A DNA stretch of 36,473 bases from positions 1 to 36,473 of IMG/VR virus record IMGVR_UViG_2713896902_000005. One strand, written 5' to 3'. The stretch's first letter is position 1. Each line of letters opens with the position of its first letter. This DNA is from a virus (Duplodnaviria; Heunggongvirae; Uroviricota; Caudoviricetes). Positions 20,145 through 28,800 of this stretch are shown piece by piece. Both the position numbers and the translations under genes were made by a program. The notes beneath the pieces were generated by a model, which had not been told where the DNA came from, made no database searches, and worked only from the letters and a program-made list of their open reading frames with translations.

Positions 20145-21536
20145 TCACTTAATAGGATTTGGTTTTATGTCGTCAAGCCAGTCGTTATCACCTCTTAGCT
20201 TGGCTACTCGTCCTTCAACATTAGTTAACGGTTTATAAGCAGAGTATTTGCCTATAGCCCTAGCAGAATGCTCTCCAGCAACACGATAATTTTGGAAGTC
20301 CAACTCAAGTCCATGCTGCTCCGCTCTCATTCGAATATAGCCACGAAGCATGTTTTCTCTAAATCGAAACCAAGATGGACGATTCCCTAAAGCAGGGATG
20401 ATGATGCATCCAAATGTCGGTTTCTTCAATGCATTGAACTTTCGCTCAAACGTGGATTTATCTAAAGGTGTTACATCAAGCGATTTGCAAATTTTAACGT
20501 ACGATTCTGATATATGAGTCTTATGTCTGGTCAAATCAGCCATATCGGACATAGCCCAAAGAATATGCTTATATGACTCATCACGTCCCTCTGTTGCATC
20601 CGTGTAACTTTGCCTTAAAGTTTCCGAGACTGAATCAATTGCATCATTTAACCCTTTAATGAAAAGGTTGTAGTCAACAGAGCTGTATTCACGTATTGAG
20701 CTTTGACATGTTAAAAGGATTTTTTCACAAATAAGATGAATGTAGTTCGGGAACCCGTCACTAAGACCCGCAATTTTATAGCGGACAGAATCATCGACAG
20801 TCAGGCCAAACTCATCGAAAGCATTATCAATTATTTGAAAACGACCATTCCATGGTAAACTATCGAGATGTACCTGATGTATTTGTCGCTCACTTGATTT
20901 ATGCCCTCCGATTAAAGTAACGAGAGAATCACCAATCCCCGTAAAAATTAATTTTACTTCACACGCCTGATCACCAAGTTGCTTAATGAGTGATCCAAAC
21001 TTTTGTCGTTCTTCATCAGAGTCAATTTGGTCAAACTCATCGATAACTATATAAGGAATCTTTGAGTGAACTTTAGTTAAAAATTGCAACGCCCGAACGG
21101 CTGCAGAAACTGAGTCAATTTTCAGTTCTGGATAATTATATTTTTGATTTTGACCAGCATTGATACCACCAATTCCAGCCACATTTAAGCCAAAGCTCCA
21201 TCCCTGTGTATCGATTTTCTTATCCTGAGGTGTGCCTCGCAAAATAATGTCATTCATGACACTTGAAAAAGTGGATTCTTTCTCGCAGCCAACCAAAATA
21301 GGTTCAGCATCTTCCTGCAGCTTAAAAGCAACAGTTTGCGCTAAGGATGTCTTTCCTACTCCGCGATCACCATAAATGAAAGCATGCCGACCTGTAGCAT
21401 AAAGCGCCAATTCGAGATCGGTTACATGTTTTTCACGTCCAAATAACAGTTCCATAGAAACAACTGGACCCGTTGGTCGCAAAACTTTATGCAGTTTATG
21501 CATAAAGTCTCGCAAAGAAAGACCTCCACAGAGCAT
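20145..21536 (-). CDS. P-loop NTPase of unknown function (AAA/STAND-like Walker A and B), moron at the Q-S locus
   Basis: 463 aa; Walker A GDRGVGKTS and Walker B hhhhDE (YIVIDEFDQ); clearly lower GC than flanks; bracketed by terminators. Confidence 0.7.
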   Translation of the reverse strand: MLCGGLSLRDFMHKLHKVLRPTGPVVSMELLFGREKHVTDLELALYATGRHAFIYGDRGVGKTSLAQTVAFKLQEDAEPILVGCEKESTFSSVMNDIILRGTPQDKKIDTQGWSFGLNVAGIGGINAGQNQKYNYPELKIDSVSAAVRALQFLTKVHSKIPYIVIDEFDQIDSDEERQKFGSLIKQLGDQACEVKLIFTGIGDSLVTLIGGHKSSERQIHQVHLDSLPWNGRFQIIDNAFDEFGLTVDDSVRYKIAGLSDGFPNYIHLICEKILLTCQSSIREYSSVDYNLFIKGLNDAIDSVSETLRQSYTDATEGRDESYKHILWAMSDMADLTRHKTHISESYVKICKSLDVTPLDKSTFERKFNALKKPTFGCIIIPALGNRPSWFRFRENMLRGYIRMRAEQHGLELDFQNYRVAGEHSARAIGKYSAYKPLTNVEGRVAKLRGDNDWLDDIKPNPIK

Positions 21537-21675: not shown

Positions 21676-22254
21676 TCAAGCACTTTCTTGCTCACTTTGC
21701 AATTTAAATCTGTCGCTATTTGTGCCAAACGCATCACATAGTGGAGCGTACAGGAGCGATTCGGCCAAACTTATCCATGTGTCAACTCGGCGGCGACAGG
21801 TAATGAATGCCCAGTCAGGATGTTTAATATGAAGCTCATTGGCCATTTGCAACTTGCTCTTACGCAGACGATACCGGCCAACAATCACACCGTATAGAGA
21901 ACGGTAATCATTATTCATCAGCACCGAGGCGATCACACCGTCAATCTTCAGGCCTTCATCGTCCGAGCAAAACGCCAGACTACTTTTGTTTTTACTGTTG
22001 AGTATTTCGCGCAAATAAGCTTCGAGCTCTGGTTTCGTAATGCCTGACTTTTTCATACGGCGCAGCGCATCGTTGATTGCAGTTTTGGTAATTTTGCTGG
22101 ATACAAGCAGTTGGTTAAACATGTTACCGCTAGTCCCTCCACTGATATAAGACCAACGCCCCCACATGCGGAGCTTCCCCTGAACCCAGATACTTTCCAG
22201 AGTACGAAGACGAACCATTTCACCCGTTTTGCCAATTTCAGAAGGATTAATCAT
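21676..22254 (-). CDS. Late-gene antitermination protein Q-like
   Basis: 192 aa; position immediately upstream of the tR'-like hairpin and lysis genes; motif resemblance (RMWGRWSY, CSDDEG) to QuuD-type Q proteins as recalled. Confidence 0.55.
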   Translation of the reverse strand: MINPSEIGKTGEMVRLRTLESIWVQGKLRMWGRWSYISGGTSGNMFNQLLVSSKITKTAINDALRRMKKSGITKPELEAYLREILNSKNKSSLAFCSDDEGLKIDGVIASVLMNNDYRSLYGVIVGRYRLRKSKLQMANELHIKHPDWAFITCRRRVDTWISLAESLLYAPLCDAFGTNSDRFKLQSEQESA

Positions 22255-22268
22255 TTAGAGTTCTCCAC

Positions 22269-23264
22269 TTACGCCAGCACGCCAATTGCCAGCGCACGAT
22301 CGATAAAACGAAATATCAGCTCCAGCTGGGAGCCATACATCTCTTCAAATGCCACGGTATCCGCATGCAGCTCGTCGTGATGCTTTCTGCACAAAGGCAA
22401 CACAAAGAGGTCATGCGCTTTTGTACCCATTCCCCCCTGACCGTGGCCTATCAGGTGGTGGGGATCATCAGCAGGCTTTCCACAACATGCACACAGCTGC
22501 GTCTTAACCCAGCGCGTGTACTTTTCATTAACCCAGCGGCGACGTTTTGGGCGTAACATAAAAGACTCCGGCGACTCCGGATCCACTTCCAGCGCCAGCA
22601 CTTTTTTCGCTTTATCCTGGATGATGCTGGTGGCAGGAACCGAAGGCACAAGGTCACTTTCCCGGGTAACAGACGGCACAACAGGCTTCGGTAATCTCAG
22701 TGCCTTACGGGCTGCACTTTCCGGTAAGGCATCCGCCAGGTCATTACGAATCAGCCACCAGCACAGTTCCGGCATTGTCACAACGTGACTGTCATCAAAA
22801 CCGAGATCCCGACGCACAACAGACAACACCCAGCGGGCACAGTTATCCGTTGCCATTGATTCCAGCCGTTCCGTGAACTGATCGCGCAGCTGGTTATCGC
22901 AGTGCCAGCACAGACGGATTGCGCCCGTAGCGTGTCGCATTGTGGTCATGTTCTCGCTGTGCCAGTCGGAATGAGGCCACTGGCAGCCTTTTTCACGAAG
23001 TAACCAGCTTTCAAGACATTCCACGCCACCAGCACGACGGATCACTGCCTCATTGCGGAACACGGCCCGAACGGCAGGATCATCCGCCAGCGGTTGTGAT
23101 GCCGCCGGAACGGCACCACTGGCGAAAGATGAATAACGTTCCGGCTCAGGCTCCAGCAGGACACGCCCCTGCATAAACAGGGGCATCAGCTCTGAACCTG
23201 GCCTGAACAATACGATCCCCATACGCGGGGCAATTTCAGGAGTCAGTAGTGCTCTCACGGTCAC
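22269..23264 (-). CDS. DUF968-like protein with C-terminal HNH-like Cys/His motif
   Basis: 331 aa; C-terminal CACCGKPADDPHHLIGHGQGG...CRKHHDELH; typical Nin-region position. Confidence 0.5.
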   Translation of the reverse strand: MTVRALLTPEIAPRMGIVLFRPGSELMPLFMQGRVLLEPEPERYSSFASGAVPAASQPLADDPAVRAVFRNEAVIRRAGGVECLESWLLREKGCQWPHSDWHSENMTTMRHATGAIRLCWHCDNQLRDQFTERLESMATDNCARWVLSVVRRDLGFDDSHVVTMPELCWWLIRNDLADALPESAARKALRLPKPVVPSVTRESDLVPSVPATSIIQDKAKKVLALEVDPESPESFMLRPKRRRWVNEKYTRWVKTQLCACCGKPADDPHHLIGHGQGGMGTKAHDLFVLPLCRKHHDELHADTVAFEEMYGSQLELIFRFIDRALAIGVLA

Positions 23265-23265
23265 C

Positions 23266-24108
23266 TCAATGAACGGTATCGAGCAGCTTTAACAGCTCAG
23301 GGAATCGGGATTCGAAGAAATGCGGCTGCGTCTCGCGCGGATTTGCGGGACTGGTGATGTTCTTGCCGAACATGCAGCCTTTCGCTGTCAGCGACCAGAA
23401 TTTTTTGATGTTGTTAATCGCGGTACGGCTGTATCGTTCGCGCTGCTCGACGATCCCCAGTTTCACCATCTGGTGATATGCCTGATTAGCCGTCAGGCGT
23501 ATACCATACTGTTTCAGCAGTGCACTCAGTGACAGTGTCGGGCGACTTGAGCCATCGTGTGCATCAGCAGGAGCATCAATGGCATAGCGCGGTGCCAGAT
23601 TCGGTAAGCCAACAGCCTCCTGGAGTTTCTGACAGGCACCAAGCACTGAAGAGTTAGACAGGTTTAACTCCCGGCGCATAAAGTCCAGCAGGATCACGCC
23701 AGCCTGCATCTTGTCAGCAACCTGTCCGGATAATTTTTCCGGTGCGCTGGTTACCATATCGAAAGTACGGATCACCTTCAGATGGAATGACGGGCTGATC
23801 CACATTGCATAGGCATACACCAGTTCCTTGCAGACATACGTTCCCCGTTCATTTCCCCCATGAATCACACTCACCGGGTCAACACCCAAATTCTGGGTGT
23901 TGGTCAATTCATGAACAAGCTCAACAGTTTGTTGGCTGGAAAGAAACTTTCCCGGCTCCTTGGTTCTGGCATTTGCACCAGATGCTACTGCTGCGCGATG
24001 CAGATCGTTCAGGCTGTAACGCCCATAAGCATCACGACGAACTTCAATACCATCAATGACCATCAGATTATTCATACTTCGTTTCTCCTCTTGATCAGGC
24101 GGCTGCAC
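23266..24108 (-). CDS. KilA-N domain protein (antirepressor-like)
   Basis: 280 aa; N-terminal KilA-N-like region (LMVIDGIEVRRDAYGRYSLNDLHRAA). Confidence 0.55.
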   Translation of the reverse strand: MQPPDQEEKRSMNNLMVIDGIEVRRDAYGRYSLNDLHRAAVASGANARTKEPGKFLSSQQTVELVHELTNTQNLGVDPVSVIHGGNERGTYVCKELVYAYAMWISPSFHLKVIRTFDMVTSAPEKLSGQVADKMQAGVILLDFMRRELNLSNSSVLGACQKLQEAVGLPNLAPRYAIDAPADAHDGSSRPTLSLSALLKQYGIRLTANQAYHQMVKLGIVEQRERYSRTAINNIKKFWSLTAKGCMFGKNITSPANPRETQPHFFESRFPELLKLLDTVH

Positions 24109-24484
24109 CCGCCGTTTTCTCGTACTTACTGATAGTGATCTCGACCTTCCCTTCCGGGATAACCGGTCCCCACTCCACCAGCATTCTTTTCACCTGACTG
24201 TCGTCTTCCCACACCCCCGCGTGGGTCAGGGCGTCAAACAGCGCCTTGTTATAGTTGTCCAGATCGCGGATCCGGTTATCCGGAGGAAACAACACGATCT
24301 CCACTGAAGCAGGTGCCGACGTTGGTTTTGGCAGACGACGTAACTGCTCAACTATTGCTGCACACGCCGCGCTCTGGAATTTGCGCCCCGCCGCGCTTAT
24401 CAGGCTCTTACCTGCAAACGCCCCTTTGTTGGGGTGTCGCCAGTACGTGTTCACGCTGGGCGGAAAAGGCAGTATTAGCTTCAT
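24095..24484 (-). CDS. rusA: Holliday junction resolvase RusA
   Basis: 129 aa; RusA-like motifs (PPSVNTYWRH..., RDLDNYNKALFDALT). Confidence 0.8.
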   Translation of the reverse strand: MKLILPFPPSVNTYWRHPNKGAFAGKSLISAAGRKFQSAACAAIVEQLRRLPKPTSAPASVEIVLFPPDNRIRDLDNYNKALFDALTHAGVWEDDSQVKRMLVEWGPVIPEGKVEITISKYEKTAGAAA

Positions 24485-24807
24485 ACTTTCAGCTCCCTCT
24501 CATGTAACCAGTGGGCTACACGCAGCCTGGCGTTTTCCTCACCGGCAAGCAGTGCGCGGATAATCCCGACCGCCTCGCTGTCGTCGTCCTTCACCGCGGT
24601 ATGAAGAGTGATACCCCGGGCCACGCCACGCTTTATCGTGATGACGCCTTTTTTCTCCAGTGCGCGAAGATGCTCCACCGCTGCATTCACTGAACGGTAT
24701 CCCAGCATGGTTGCCACCTCCTGATTGGTTGGCGGGAAGCCACGTTCTTTCTGGTAAGAAATCAGCATATCCAGCACCTGCTGCTGGCATTGAGTTAACG
24801 TCGTCAT
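24481..24807 (-). CDS. LexA N-terminal DNA-binding domain protein lacking the S24 peptidase domain
   Basis: 108 aa; aligns with the LexA winged-helix pattern (LT.CQQQVLD..., GFPPT..E.A..LGYRS.NAA.EHL.AL.KKGVI); too short for a protease domain. Confidence 0.6.
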   Translation of the reverse strand: MTTLTQCQQQVLDMLISYQKERGFPPTNQEVATMLGYRSVNAAVEHLRALEKKGVITIKRGVARGITLHTAVKDDDSEAVGIIRALLAGEENARLRVAHWLHERELKV

Positions 24808-25490
24808 GCCGCCATCTCCCTGACCAGTTTTTCCGCCTGCTGGCGAACCTGCACCAGAAAGGCTTCACCACATGCCTCAAGTTCATCGCGCCCGATGTAG
24901 CTGATTGCCGGTCCCTTCCAGGTCTTGTCGAAAACAGCAATAGCACCAGCGAAGAAAGCGCCTGTCGGCACCTGCTTCTCATCCTTCGGGATAAACCAGG
25001 CAGGCAGTTCAAAACCAATACGCCCGCGAATAAAAGCAATATGGTCCGCATCTTCCGGCCACCACACTTCGCTGGTGGCAGCTTTGATCAGGAAAACATA
25101 GCGCCCGCCCTTATCACGCATGGCACTGGCATGTTTCATGATGTAACGCATGCCGGTGATGTATTGCCCCTCATGCTGACTGGCGCGGCTGTATGGGGGA
25201 TTACCAAAGGCAGCACCTTTAAGCTCCGCAAGACGTTCTGACCAGTCATGCGCCAGCGCGTTATCTTCCGCCGTGTAATACGCGGCACATTTGGCGTTAT
25301 CACCGTCAGTGAACAGATCCAGAACAAACGGGCCAAACAGGGTGTTAATTCCCCAGAAAATGTTGTCCGGCGTGCGCCACTGATCGCCCACTTCCTTCAG
25401 TTCATGGGCTGGTTTGTTCCGCAGTTCCACCAGCGCCTGGCAATATTTATTACTCATTAAGCCCCCACGTAATTCCCTGACAGATACCAC
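24804..25490 (-). CDS. Phage DNA N6-adenine methyltransferase (Dam-like)
   Basis: 228 aa with the NPPY catalytic motif (FGNPPY). Confidence 0.8.
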   Translation of the reverse strand: MVSVRELRGGLMSNKYCQALVELRNKPAHELKEVGDQWRTPDNIFWGINTLFGPFVLDLFTDGDNAKCAAYYTAEDNALAHDWSERLAELKGAAFGNPPYSRASQHEGQYITGMRYIMKHASAMRDKGGRYVFLIKAATSEVWWPEDADHIAFIRGRIGFELPAWFIPKDEKQVPTGAFFAGAIAVFDKTWKGPAISYIGRDELEACGEAFLVQVRQQAEKLVREMAA

Positions 25491-25951
25491 TCTTCACCCG
25501 ATGCAGCGCGCTTGCTGCTTTTCCGTAAGCACCGCTCACGGCGCGCCAGAAAATTGTTTCGTTCTGACTGGGAGTGGCTTTCACGGAATGCCGCCATCCA
25601 CACGGTTGCAGCACGACGGTATAAGCCCCTGGACTCCAGTTCTTCAGCCTGGCGGGTCAGGCACAAAATCACCCGGGGATCGTTAGTGCCGACATAGAAA
25701 TTACGCACAGGTTTGGTTTCACGAACTGGTTGCGGTTCCGGCTCCTGCGCTCTCTCAGTCAGGCGCGGGAAATGTCTGCGTGTATCTCCTTCACAACGGT
25801 GAGCCACACGCCCACTCTGACGTAACTTGCTTGCAGACTGCAGAACGCGCTGCCGTGAGTAACCTGCAAAAGCATCCGCAATGTCTCCGGAAGTACACCC
25901 CGGATGGGCTTCAATGAATTTCTGAACTTCATTCAAAAGACTCATAATCAC
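25457..25951 (-). CDS. Putative transcriptional regulator with PerC-like C-terminal region
   Basis: 164 aa; C-terminal AEELESRGLYRRAATVWM resembles the PerC motif as recalled. Confidence 0.4.
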   Translation of the reverse strand: MIMSLLNEVQKFIEAHPGCTSGDIADAFAGYSRQRVLQSASKLRQSGRVAHRCEGDTRRHFPRLTERAQEPEPQPVRETKPVRNFYVGTNDPRVILCLTRQAEELESRGLYRRAATVWMAAFRESHSQSERNNFLARRERCLRKSSKRAASGEEWYLSGNYVGA

Positions 25952-26889
25952 CCCCTGAATCCTGCCGGGATCTGGCTGTAGTCCACGTTGTCGTAACTGG
26001 ATTTGAAGTACGGGTCTTCGCGTTTTTCGGTGTACGTGCTTACGGACGGCGATAAGCGCAGGGAAAGCTCATCCCATTTTTCCCGCAGCTTCGACGGGCT
26101 GAGCACGTTACGGCACCAGAACGGATCGCGGCTGACGCGGCTGTACATCTCGCAGATTTGTTTATGAGTACGCCCATCCTGTACACACATCAGGCGAATT
26201 TCGTTTGCCCAGGCTGTCCAGTTCGGTTCTTTAGGACGTACCACTTCGCCGTCACATTCGGCGGCCTGCTCGTACAGAGCGATGATTTTTTTCCAGAGCC
26301 ACTGTGCGCAGGTCAAATCATCCTGCGTTCCCCACTGGCGCTTTTTAGGGCTGAATACAACCGCATCAGGATGGCGAGTTAAAAACTCTTGTTCAGCCGT
26401 CTGCGTGTCCGGTTGCGAAGCGTCCGGACGAGAAGTTTTTTTATCTGACGGATCATGTTTTGATTTTACTGACGGATCCCCGCCAGATTCTGACGGGTGA
26501 AAACCCGCTTTTTTGCCAGATTTCGACGCATCAAATTTTGACTGGTCAGATTTTGATGCGTCAGATTTTGACGGGTCAGAATCTGACAGTTGAGAAAATG
26601 CCGCTGCCTGAAGCTTCGCAACGTTAAGCTGATAAACATTCGACGCATTGCGGTTACCCTGGCGACGCGCCTTACGCGTTAACCAGCCTTCTGCTTCCAG
26701 CCGTGCGATAGCCGTTCTGACGGTGCTCATCCCCGCGCCAATCTGGCGGGCAATGGTTTCAATTGATGGCCAGCACACACCTTCGTCATTACTGAAATCA
26801 GCCAGGCGGGCCATAATTGCCACGCTGGATAACTTCATGCCTGACGCAGCGCAACCATCCCATACATAGCCGGTTAATTTAGTGCTCAT
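25948..26889 (-). CDS. Replication initiator (O-like: N-terminal HTH, repetitive linker, C-terminal domain)
   Basis: 313 aa; N-terminal HTH; linker SDSDPSKSDASKSDQSKFDASKSG encoded by the iteron block; position after cro and the CII-like gene. Confidence 0.65.
   Translation of the reverse strand: MSTKLTGYVWDGCAASGMKLSSVAIMARLADFSNDEGVCWPSIETIARQIGAGMSTVRTAIARLEAEGWLTRKARRQGNRNASNVYQLNVAKLQAAAFSQLSDSDPSKSDASKSDQSKFDASKSGKKAGFHPSESGGDPSVKSKHDPSDKKTSRPDASQPDTQTAEQEFLTRHPDAVVFSPKKRQWGTQDDLTCAQWLWKKIIALYEQAAECDGEVVRPKEPNWTAWANEIRLMCVQDGRTHKQICEMYSRVSRDPFWCRNVLSPSKLREKWDELSLRLSPSVSTYTEKREDPYFKSSYDNVDYSQIPAGFRG
26440..26595. repeat. Iteron array inside the initiator gene (candidate replication origin)
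   Basis: Tandem 15-bp units TCAGATTTTGAYGSG (e.g. 26546-26590) with degenerate copies back to about 26440. Confidence 0.6.
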
Positions 26890-28035: not shown

Positions 28036-28125
28036 ACAACATGTACCTCCTGTATACATATTACATGATTGAAATGAACCTTCAAGATACTTGTACCTTA
28101 ACGGTACAAGGGTTTTAATTTCGTT
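28036..28125. promoter_or_regulatory. cI-cro intergenic switch region with candidate operators
   Basis: Perfect palindrome CTTGTACC-TTAAC-GGTACAAG at 28090-28110 plus related TGTAC sites (CATGTACC, TGTATACA). Confidence 0.55.
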
Positions 28126-28800
28126 ATGAAAACAATCCATGACATCCGGCGGTCTAACGCCAGAAAACTGAGAGATGGTGTTGGCGGGAATTCTTCCTTT
28201 GCCACTATGATTGATCGCGAGCCAACCCAGACCAGCAGGTTTATGGGAGATGGTGCTACTAAAAATATCGGTGACAGCATGGCACGACACATCGAAAAAT
28301 GTTTCGACCTGCCTGTCGGATGGCTCGATCAAGAACACCAGACAACGAACATCACAAAAAAACCTGATGTTTCAATCACTAATAAACAAATCACATTAGT
28401 CCCTGTCATATCATGGGTACAGGCCGGAGCATGGAAAGAAGTTGGATATTCTGAGGTTGATTTGAGCACAGCAGAAACGTATCCCTGCCCTGTACCCTGT
28501 GGGGAAATGACTTATATCTTGCGGGTGATAGGTGATTCAATGATTGATGAGTACCGCCCGGGAGACATGATTTTTGTCGATCCTGAAGTACCTGCCTGCC
28601 ACGGTGACGACGTTATTGCATTGATGCACGATACAGGTGAAACCACCTTCAAAAGGTTGATAGAAGATGGGACACAGCGTTATCTCAAAGCGTTAAACCC
28701 AAACTGGCCTGAGCCTTACATTAAGATCAACGGTAATTGCTCTATAATTGGAACTGTGATTTTCTCAGGAAAACCAAGAAGATACAAAATCAAAGCCTAA
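28126..28800 (+). CDS. cI: CI-like repressor with LexA-type S24 autopeptidase domain
   Basis: 224 aa; N-terminal HTH; C-terminal GDSM serine motif (RVIGDSMIDEYRPGDMIFVD); divergent from cro. Confidence 0.85.
   Translation: MKTIHDIRRSNARKLRDGVGGNSSFATMIDREPTQTSRFMGDGATKNIGDSMARHIEKCFDLPVGWLDQEHQTTNITKKPDVSITNKQITLVPVISWVQAGAWKEVGYSEVDLSTAETYPCPVPCGEMTYILRVIGDSMIDEYRPGDMIFVDPEVPACHGDDVIALMHDTGETTFKRLIEDGTQRYLKALNPNWPEPYIKINGNCSIIGTVIFSGKPRRYKIKA

Follow-up and report, generated by a model that had tools for sequence, protein, structure and literature searches.

A LexA-type DNA-binding protein without a protease domain in an SfV-like prophage: a candidate RecA-insensitive repressor

The LexA repressor of Escherichia coli contacts DNA through Ser39, Asn41, Ala42, Glu44 and Glu45, according to a secondary source (PMC13416735). 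It dimerises through residues 85-202, and once it is cleaved, newly exposed motifs make its fragments targets of Lon and ClpXP, which degrade them (bioRxiv 10.1101/2020.07.07.191791). Among phages, the only characterised truncated LexA homologue is gp6 of the Bacillus thuringiensis tectivirus GIL01, which is 44% identical to the host LexA domain; its binding site is GaCACAnnTGTGaC, and it acts as an activator of the late promoter P3 (PMC6182141). Here we describe a 108-amino-acid (aa) LexA-like protein encoded on the minus strand of IMG/VR record IMGVR_UViG_2713896902_000005, a viral sequence of 36,473 nucleotides (nt; hereafter the window) that represents an SfV-like prophage of E. coli or Shigella. 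The protein consists of a LexA-type winged helix and a conserved two-helix tail and has no protease domain. We assign a probability of roughly 40% to the interpretation that it works as a dimeric repressor at LexA-type operators and is insensitive to RecA. The gene, its signals and the parts of its product lie at the following window coordinates:

24481..24807, minus strand: LexA-like gene, homologue of SfV orf42 (open reading frame, ORF, list; Pfam PF01726; PHROG 362; RefSeq neighbour annotation; operon position of SfV orf42)
24604..24807, minus strand: LexA-type winged helix-turn-helix (HTH), residues 1-68 (AlphaFold secondary structure, Foldseek match 3jso_B, HMMER alignment to 1lea/1jhh)
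24652..24690, minus strand: recognition helix VNAAVEHLRALEK, residues 40-52, preceded by S39 (alignments, family statistics)
24586..24603, minus strand: flexible linker, residues 69-74 (predicted local distance difference test score, pLDDT, below 50 at residues 71-74; length and sequence vary across the family)
24484..24585, minus strand: two amphipathic helices (75-87 and 93-103), residues 75-108 (AlphaFold model, family alignment A3)
24816..24820, minus strand: Shine-Dalgarno-like GGGAG, 8 nt 5' of the ATG and within the end of dam (direct sequence reading)
24804..24807, minus strand: ATGA overlap of the dam stop and the lexA-like start (direct sequence reading)
24481..24484, minus strand: ATGA overlap of the lexA-like stop and the rusA start (direct sequence reading)

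The initial annotation had aligned this protein with the N-terminal winged-helix domain of LexA, and the searches bear this out. Residues 1-65 match Pfam PF01726 (LexA_DNA_bind) along its entire length (profile positions 1-65 of 65, E 2.9e-19, 69 bits against a cutoff of 23.7), E. coli LexA chains are the top hits of a PDB sequence search (E 6e-16 to 3e-15), and BLASTP aligns residues 1-90 with E. coli LexA at 43% identity (E 1e-21). An AlphaFold model built with 13 family sequences as input (mean pLDDT 75.5) places helices at residues 6-22, 28-35 and 40-52 and wing strands at 56-59 and 65-68. Foldseek superposes the model on the LexA-DNA complex 3JSO with a root-mean-square deviation (rmsd) of 1.5 Å over 67-68 columns at 50-51% identity.

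The absence of an S24 autopeptidase domain, also stated in the initial annotation, is confirmed at several levels. The Pfam scan of the 108-aa protein gives no match to Peptidase_S24 (PF00717), and the NCBIfam equivalog model for LexA, TIGR00498, is matched only over positions 1-91 of 203, with 70.6 bits falling below its cutoff of 110.95. The LexA C-terminal domain has no tblastn match anywhere in the window, and no remnant of the protease domain is left behind the gene because the next ORF, a bona fide RusA (Pfam PF05866), starts at the stop codon. Self-cleavage is therefore impossible for lack of an autopeptidase domain, and RecA-stimulated inactivation of this phage-encoded LexA head is ruled out, as had been predicted. 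Both HMMER and BLASTP align Ala88-Gly89-Glu90 with the LexA cleavage site A84-G85-E86, and the chain ends 18 residues past this position. The Ala-Gly pair is replaced by Ala-Asn or Val-Gly in close relatives and is absent from other clades, and AlphaFold predicts the segment to be helical rather than a cleavage loop. With an unconserved motif, a helical model and no catalytic domain, no functional counterpart of the Ala84-Gly85 cleavage site was found in the protein.

The last 35 residues form a conserved C-terminal helical hairpin that was overlooked in the earlier description. Across the family, alignment A3 shows the tail pattern (I/L)(I/L)(R/Q)x(L/M)(L/I/V)...A(R)xRAxxxL, and the tail of the window protein has no Pfam match even at E 10. 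We infer that the hairpin serves dimerisation or the binding of a partner.

Several observations show that the gene is intact and evolves as a coding gene under purifying selection. The ORF list and direct reading of the sequence agree on an ATG start, a TGA stop and a product of 108 aa, and the overlap of the dam stop with the lexA-like start suggests translational coupling. Compared with a 96%-identical Shigella copy, the ratio of nonsynonymous to synonymous substitution rates (dN/dS) is 0.18 overall; the winged helix taken separately gives 0.0, the tail 0.37. The initial annotation had left room for the protein being the N-terminal part of a longer, frameshifted gene. This explanation was rejected, since there is no S24 remnant, ATGA overlaps lie on both sides, and an architecture of winged helix, variable linker and two-helix tail (104-135 aa) is maintained under purifying selection in at least 157 distinct sequences.

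The LexA-like family is already catalogued in databases, a point missing from the initial annotation. The window protein matches PHROG 362 over its full length (residues 1-108, profile positions 1-106 of 106, E 6.5e-58), a member of the Klebsiella clade also hits PHROG 362, and the database names include "LexA family transcriptional regulator" (NCBI), "LexA-like protein" and "transcriptional repressor" (PHROG 362); SfV orf42 was originally annotated as "unknown". Full-text literature searches found no functional or experimental study of the family. The 1.6-kb dam-lexA-like-rusA segment is present at a coverage of at least 80% in 1,687 of 5,426 complete E. coli genomes (~31%), as well as in Stx2a, Stx2c and Stx2k (Shiga toxin) phages, SfII, SfIV, SfV, mEp460 and phage cdtI. 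A profile search of 1.84 billion representatives returned 11,472 matches at E ≤ 0.001; among the best 150 of these, about 120 are shorter than 190 aa, too short for head plus protease, and many of them may be fragments; some hits combine two heads in tandem. The family architecture is retained in relatives at 38-48% identity (alignment A3), and the 157 distinct sequences, taken from related loci, span clades with differences above 50%. Tracing of the family placed five clades that share this tail on roughly 190 viral contigs, each ~40 kb long. A profile search of genome contigs with alignment A2 yielded only 5 loci, and P0138 used as a query against the viral contigs found nothing. Some metagenomic proteins of 140-222 aa (P0126, P0128, P0136, P0139 and P0142) contain two tandem LexA DNA-binding domains and no protease, and could be single-chain pseudo-dimers.

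As judged from the aligned sequences, the DNA-reading head clearly resembles that of LexA, with a systematic change at one position and differences between clades at another. The window protein keeps S39, N41, A42 and E45 (four of the five contacts listed in PMC13416735) and the wing residues R64-G65-I66, and it has Val in place of LexA Glu44. None of the 157 unique family sequences departs from S39, N41, K53 or R64-G65-I66, and 97% of them keep A42. Position 45 is Glu in 50%, Asp in 27% and Ala or Leu in 21% of these sequences, and differs between clades while being conserved within them.

To relate the family to possible operators, perfect palindromes were enumerated without a prior motif in about 200 related loci (perfect 5-nt half-sites, within ±5 kb of the gene). 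The canonical SOS box, ACTGT-N8-ACAGT, emerged as common to most clades, and the other recurrent palindromes that were checked are coding-sequence features or terminators. SOS boxes with AT-rich spacers number 64 in 48 of 190 loci where 2.7 ± 2.0 are expected, a tally that covers loci with the LexA-like gene. They fall into five classes: three consist of boxes preceding dinI-like genes, umuD-like genes (PHROG 3469) and phage recA genes, a fourth of boxes within the linker-coding part of one cI immunity type, and the fifth of boxes that span the start codon of a DNA methyltransferase gene in the late region. In the Klebsiella-type clade a box was found in 28 of 28 loci, at a distance of 0.44-1.9 kb on the upstream side of the LexA-like gene, heading a co-directional string of the form [umuD-like][recA][dinI]-orf101-lexA-like. 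Locus L158 has the order terminator, promoter-like site, SOS box, orf82, lexA-like, and its protein reads SPNAAAEHL in the recognition helix, a single difference, at position 44, from SPNAAEEHL in LexA. A dinI-like gene, coding for another SOS damper, also occurs in three of the four complete relatives examined (mEp460, cdtI and mEp390); no dinI homologue was found in the window.

A private operator was sought in the same way. Inverted repeats and palindromes in the window and the ~200 loci comprise only origin iterons, terminators, cI/Cro-type operators, coding features and the SOS box; no conserved non-SOS palindrome was found in non-coding DNA within ±5 kb in any clade, and no candidate palindrome was found near Q or in the late region.

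Under the interpretation given above, that of a RecA-insensitive repressor at LexA-type operators, the protein would be a small sequence-specific DNA binder descended from proteobacterial LexA, in which the 35-residue hairpin replaces the LexA protease/dimerisation domain and may provide dimerisation that is independent of RecA. It would be made only when the early-right operon is on, after infection or SOS induction, when host LexA is destroyed, and would then occupy LexA-type operators (CTGT-N8-ACAG or a near variant) as a repressor that RecA cannot remove. Because the prophage itself has no SOS box, its targets would be host SOS promoters or the SOS-box promoters of co-resident elements, and the outcome would be an SOS regulon that is damped or re-closed during lytic growth. 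In its favour are the LexA fold, the retained contact residues, the SOS boxes near the gene in related phages and the dinI-like genes of three complete relatives. The gene and its place in the operon, the fold, the missing protease domain, purifying selection and conservation throughout the family are shown by the data, and dimerisation, the operator, repression and the biological role are inferred. A more ambitious version, which we consider doubtful, holds that prophages in about one third of E. coli genomes, including Stx2 prophages, carry a RecA-proof LexA surrogate that re-occupies SOS boxes by means of its own dimerisation hairpin. Such a surrogate would keep the host SOS regulon and the SOS genes of rival prophages and colicin plasmids shut while host LexA is destroyed; in phages with an SOS box inside cI, it might in addition act as a roadblock to resynthesis of the repressor and lock the lytic decision.

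A number of results weigh against this interpretation. The initial annotation had proposed that the protein could act on SOS boxes or prophage operators, and a scan of the window for CTGT-N8-ACAG returned zero sites; likewise, no site matches the 20-bp SOS consensus at three or fewer mismatches, and CTGT-Nx-ACAG at spacings of 2-16 occurs only twice (spacings 12 and 16), both times within long ORFs. An apparent excess of CTG-N10-CAG (23 sites, where a first-order Markov model predicts 8.7) was rejected as an artefact because other spacings give similar counts (11-33 sites for every spacing from 2 to 21), so that it amounts to background. In the DNA-reading head, position 44 is never Glu in the 157 family sequences (it is Ala, Thr, Val or Phe), and position 45 is Leu or Ala in part of the very clade that lies behind SOS boxes; together, positions 44 and 45 suggest clade-specific specificities that are not those of LexA. 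The monomer model is of medium confidence (pLDDT 75), and the box tally, as noted, is confined to loci that carry the gene. The SOS-box/dinI/orf101 unit is also found in Salmonella phages that lack the LexA-like gene, with ninB following dinI-orf101 in its place; the linkage in the Klebsiella clade may therefore be a coincidental insertion in the nin region, and the unit may be an independent moron regulated by host LexA. The earlier idea of an SOS mimic appears plausible, but it is weakened by the box-less prophage and by positions 44 and 45.

The same observations are relevant to the alternative of a phage transcription factor that derives from LexA but no longer has the specificity for the SOS box, as in GIL01 gp6. 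Such a factor would bind a phage-specific operator or another operator of the host and would activate or repress a particular promoter, with no direct role in SOS control. We regard this as the main rival explanation, only slightly less likely than the repressor at LexA-type operators. The precedent also counts against a LexA-type repressor, since gp6 is a truncated LexA homologue that recognises a different palindrome and activates transcription (PMC6182141). The universal replacement of Glu44 and the clade-specific identity of position 45 are the pattern that module-specific regulators should show, the gene keeps its position directly before the resolvase, DUF968 and Q in every clade, and the window prophage has no SOS box. 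Against this alternative stand the lack of any conserved non-coding palindrome other than the SOS box in the search described above (perfect 5-nt half-sites, ±5 kb), and a recognition helix that is still very near that of LexA, unlike that of gp6. The nearly invariant gene order could instead point to an accessory DNA-binding partner of RusA and DUF968/HNH, targeting or regulating junction resolution, for example, rather than to a transcription factor. Four clades at 42-48% identity, with about 150 loci, almost without exception show the order LexA-like, RusA, DUF968 (then Q), even where the upstream methyltransferase differs in family or is missing. In the window the stop codon of the LexA-like gene overlaps the rusA start, and in a fifth clade, where another small ORF and a distant RusA stand between the LexA-like gene and DUF968, a resolvase-type gene and DUF968 still follow downstream. 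Since these neighbours are homologous across loci, the synteny probably reflects for the most part a module inherited as a unit. RusA is also encoded in other phage modules that have no LexA-like gene beside it, no LexA winged helix is known to serve as a resolvase cofactor, and the conserved base-reading residues S39, N41 and A42 favour sequence-specific recognition, all of which makes a resolvase partner improbable.

Two further explanations can be given very little weight. The protein might interfere with host LexA or RecA through protein-protein contacts, as a decoy or a trans-cleavage substrate, and have no DNA binding of its own. The tail does align weakly with the cleavage-site region of LexA, and phage proteins acting on LexA or RecA exist, such as DinI and GIL01 gp7 (PMC4551915). 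We nevertheless consider interference of this kind highly improbable, because the LexA dimerisation region (residues 85-202) is absent here, the Ala-Gly pair is not conserved, and conservation is strongest in the DNA-reading head. LexA, moreover, touches RecA mainly through its C-terminal domain. Finally, the gene could be in decay, as the N-terminal part left over when a captured lexA or cI-type gene lost its protease half. An alignment running through the LexA linker to the Ala-Gly-Glu of the cleavage site is consistent with truncation just after it, and some database copies of the gene are frameshifted or fused to dam. This explanation is effectively refuted by the conservation data: dN/dS is low (0.18 overall, 0.0 for the winged helix), length and tail pattern are kept across 157 distinct sequences and clades more than 50% different, the 1.6-kb segment persists in 1,687 of 5,426 complete E. 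coli genomes, the gene has a ribosome-binding site and codon overlaps that suggest translational coupling on both sides, and the Ala-Gly is neither conserved nor predicted to lie outside a helix.

The gene is part of a delayed-early rightward operon, which on the minus strand runs CII-like, DUF4222, O-like, PerC/YfdN, Dam, LexA-like, RusA, KilA-N, DUF968/HNH, Q and lysis genes. The neighbouring features are as follows:

21676..26889, minus strand: delayed-early operon holding the LexA-like gene (ORF list, Pfam, neighbour annotation)
25948-26889, minus strand: O-like replication protein
25457-25951, minus strand: PerC/YfdN
24804..25490, minus strand: Dam, phage N6-adenine methyltransferase (PF05869), upstream neighbour; likely true start MSNKYCQ at 25457
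24095..24484, minus strand: RusA Holliday-junction resolvase (PF05866), downstream neighbour
23266-24108, minus strand: KilA-N
22269-23264, minus strand: DUF968/HNH
21676-22254, minus strand: Q antiterminator
28126..28800, plus strand: the prophage's own cI-type repressor (Peptidase_S24 PF00717, E 1.5e-26)

Since this cI carries an S24 domain, the RecA-sensitive switch of the prophage is cI and not the LexA-like gene. Within the operon, perC/yfdN, dam, lexA-like and rusA form a chain in which each stop codon overlaps the start of the next gene (TAATG, ATGA and ATGA). A weak dam promoter is annotated in SfV, and its -35 element is altered in the window from TTGCGC to CTGGCG; this promoter was not used as evidence for expression in the lysogen.

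Other repeats and genes of the window were recorded alongside. A perfect palindrome, CTTGTACCTTAACGGTACAAG, lies at 28090-28110 in the cI/cro divergent region and is probably the cI/Cro operator; the spacing of its half-sites is unlike that of an SOS box. Three consecutive inverted-repeat units of the GTCAGATTTTGAC type, within the O-like replication gene at 26525-26587, are probably the iterons of the phage origin. Between Q and the holin, a moron at 20145-21536 (minus strand) encodes a 463-aa AAA/STAND-like NTPase (AAA_16, nSTAND1), and at this position relatives have either a DNA methyltransferase or, encoded on the opposite strand, a KAP NTPase; this NTPase may be an anti-phage defence gene, the PADLOC matches being marginal only. 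For the LexA-like protein itself, the PADLOC defence models gave only a marginal match at the level of the winged HTH (CARF3--CARF, E 3.5e-4, 18 bits), and the scan gave no support for membership of a known defence system.

The SOS boxes of related loci were also found in several recurrent settings. The nin-region cassette of the Klebsiella type is exemplified by locus L178 (3839-5327), with similar arrangements in L171, L174, L177, L180-L184 and L191. In the L178 type, box 1 precedes a 109-aa UmuD-like protein (PHROG 3469) that starts with MGFPSPAKDY, like processed UmuD', and box 2 precedes DinI (PF06183), orf101 (PHROG 1813) and the LexA-like gene; L174, L182 and L183 have a phage recA behind double SOS boxes instead. 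The dinI-like genes of mEp460 (L203, 22993-23306), cdtI (L204, 26458-26765) and mEp390 (L205, 20396-20727) adjoin the integrase and are preceded by a single canonical SOS box or by two. The gene for one type of cI repressor has within its coding sequence a near-perfect 20-bp SOS box (for example TACTGTATATAAAAACAGTA), which encodes ...NTVYKNSNN... in the linker between HTH and S24 domains, and is conserved across phages with four LexA-like clades; sites include L001 24348-24367, L002 2103-2122 and L203 (mEp460) ~31972, and the box is also present in L004, L019, L021, L029, L035, L066, L067, L098, L103, L111 and L120. Such a box could be a LexA roadblock or an internal promoter; the cI of the window is of a different type and has no internal SOS box. 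Another SOS-box-like sequence, TACTGTAAAAATAAACAGTG, coincides with the start codon and the codons right after it (MKNTVKINSV) in a gene for a DNA methyltransferase that lies downstream of Q, with sites of this type at L202 (SfV) 34172, L203 (mEp460) 41023, L204 (cdtI) 44085, L160 8436 and L088 9992. The window has the 463-aa ATPase gene in place of this methyltransferase.

In E. coli, prophage induction, the release of Shiga toxin, mutagenesis and antibiotic tolerance are all under the control of the SOS response. A LexA reading head that RecA cannot switch off, spread widely among phages, would, if this is what the family represents, constitute a direct viral input to the SOS circuit. The gene is found in serotype-converting phages of Shigella as well as in Stx2a and Stx2c phages, and it could shape induction kinetics, prophage competition and toxin output. 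If, on the other hand, the protein has drifted to a private operator, it would be an ordinary accessory regulator and a second independent phage reuse of the LexA head after GIL01 gp6. We would like to emphasize that the concept of a temperate phage with a LexA head but no protease already has a precedent in the literature, and that the main value of the present case lies in the very wide family, its presence in Stx phages and the ease with which it can be tested by simple experiments.

Among the systems most similar to it, the N-terminal domain of E. coli LexA (residues 1-69; 1LEA, 3JSO) has the same fold, ~50% identity and S39, N41, A42, E45 and R64-G65 in common with the phage protein. LexA differs in carrying the S24 domain with the serine-lysine dyad Ser119/Lys156, which also forms the dimer and is lacking in the LexA-like protein, and in having Glu44, whereas the phage protein has Val44 and a private two-helix tail. 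Unlike lexA, the LexA-like gene belongs to a phage early operon and is not located behind SOS boxes of its own in the window. The LexA(1-84) fragment and the lexA3(Ind-) repressor likewise present a LexA head beyond inactivation by RecA, and Ind- LexA persistently occupies SOS boxes, as is proposed here; the phage protein differs from LexA(1-84) in its C-terminus, which is a conserved tail of its own. Dimeric winged-helix repressors of the BlaI/MecI type (Rv1846c, PDB 2G9W) are alike in layout, with a winged helix followed by C-terminal helices, but the Foldseek match to 2g9w is weak (rank 13, rmsd 9.5 Å, no sequence relationship) and offers only an architectural analogy for dimerisation. DinI-like proteins (PF06183) are also small phage accessory proteins on the SOS circuit and are encoded directly upstream of the LexA-like gene in one clade, yet they have an unrelated fold, bind RecA filaments rather than DNA, and occur together with orf101 in the absence of the LexA-like gene as well.

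GIL01 gp6 is a parallel in that both are phage-encoded LexA DNA-binding domains without a protease and both are products of early genes. The two winged helices are matched by hhalign with a probability of 96.7% (32% identity over 63 columns), and BLASTP finds no alignment between gp6 and the LexA-like protein, which therefore probably represents an independent capture from a Gram-negative LexA. The recognition helix of gp6 has been rewritten (SHKTAHRYL, using Lys38), whereas that of the LexA-like protein reads VNAAVEHL; and gp6, with 66 aa, stops after the wing, whereas the LexA-like protein continues into the helical hairpin.

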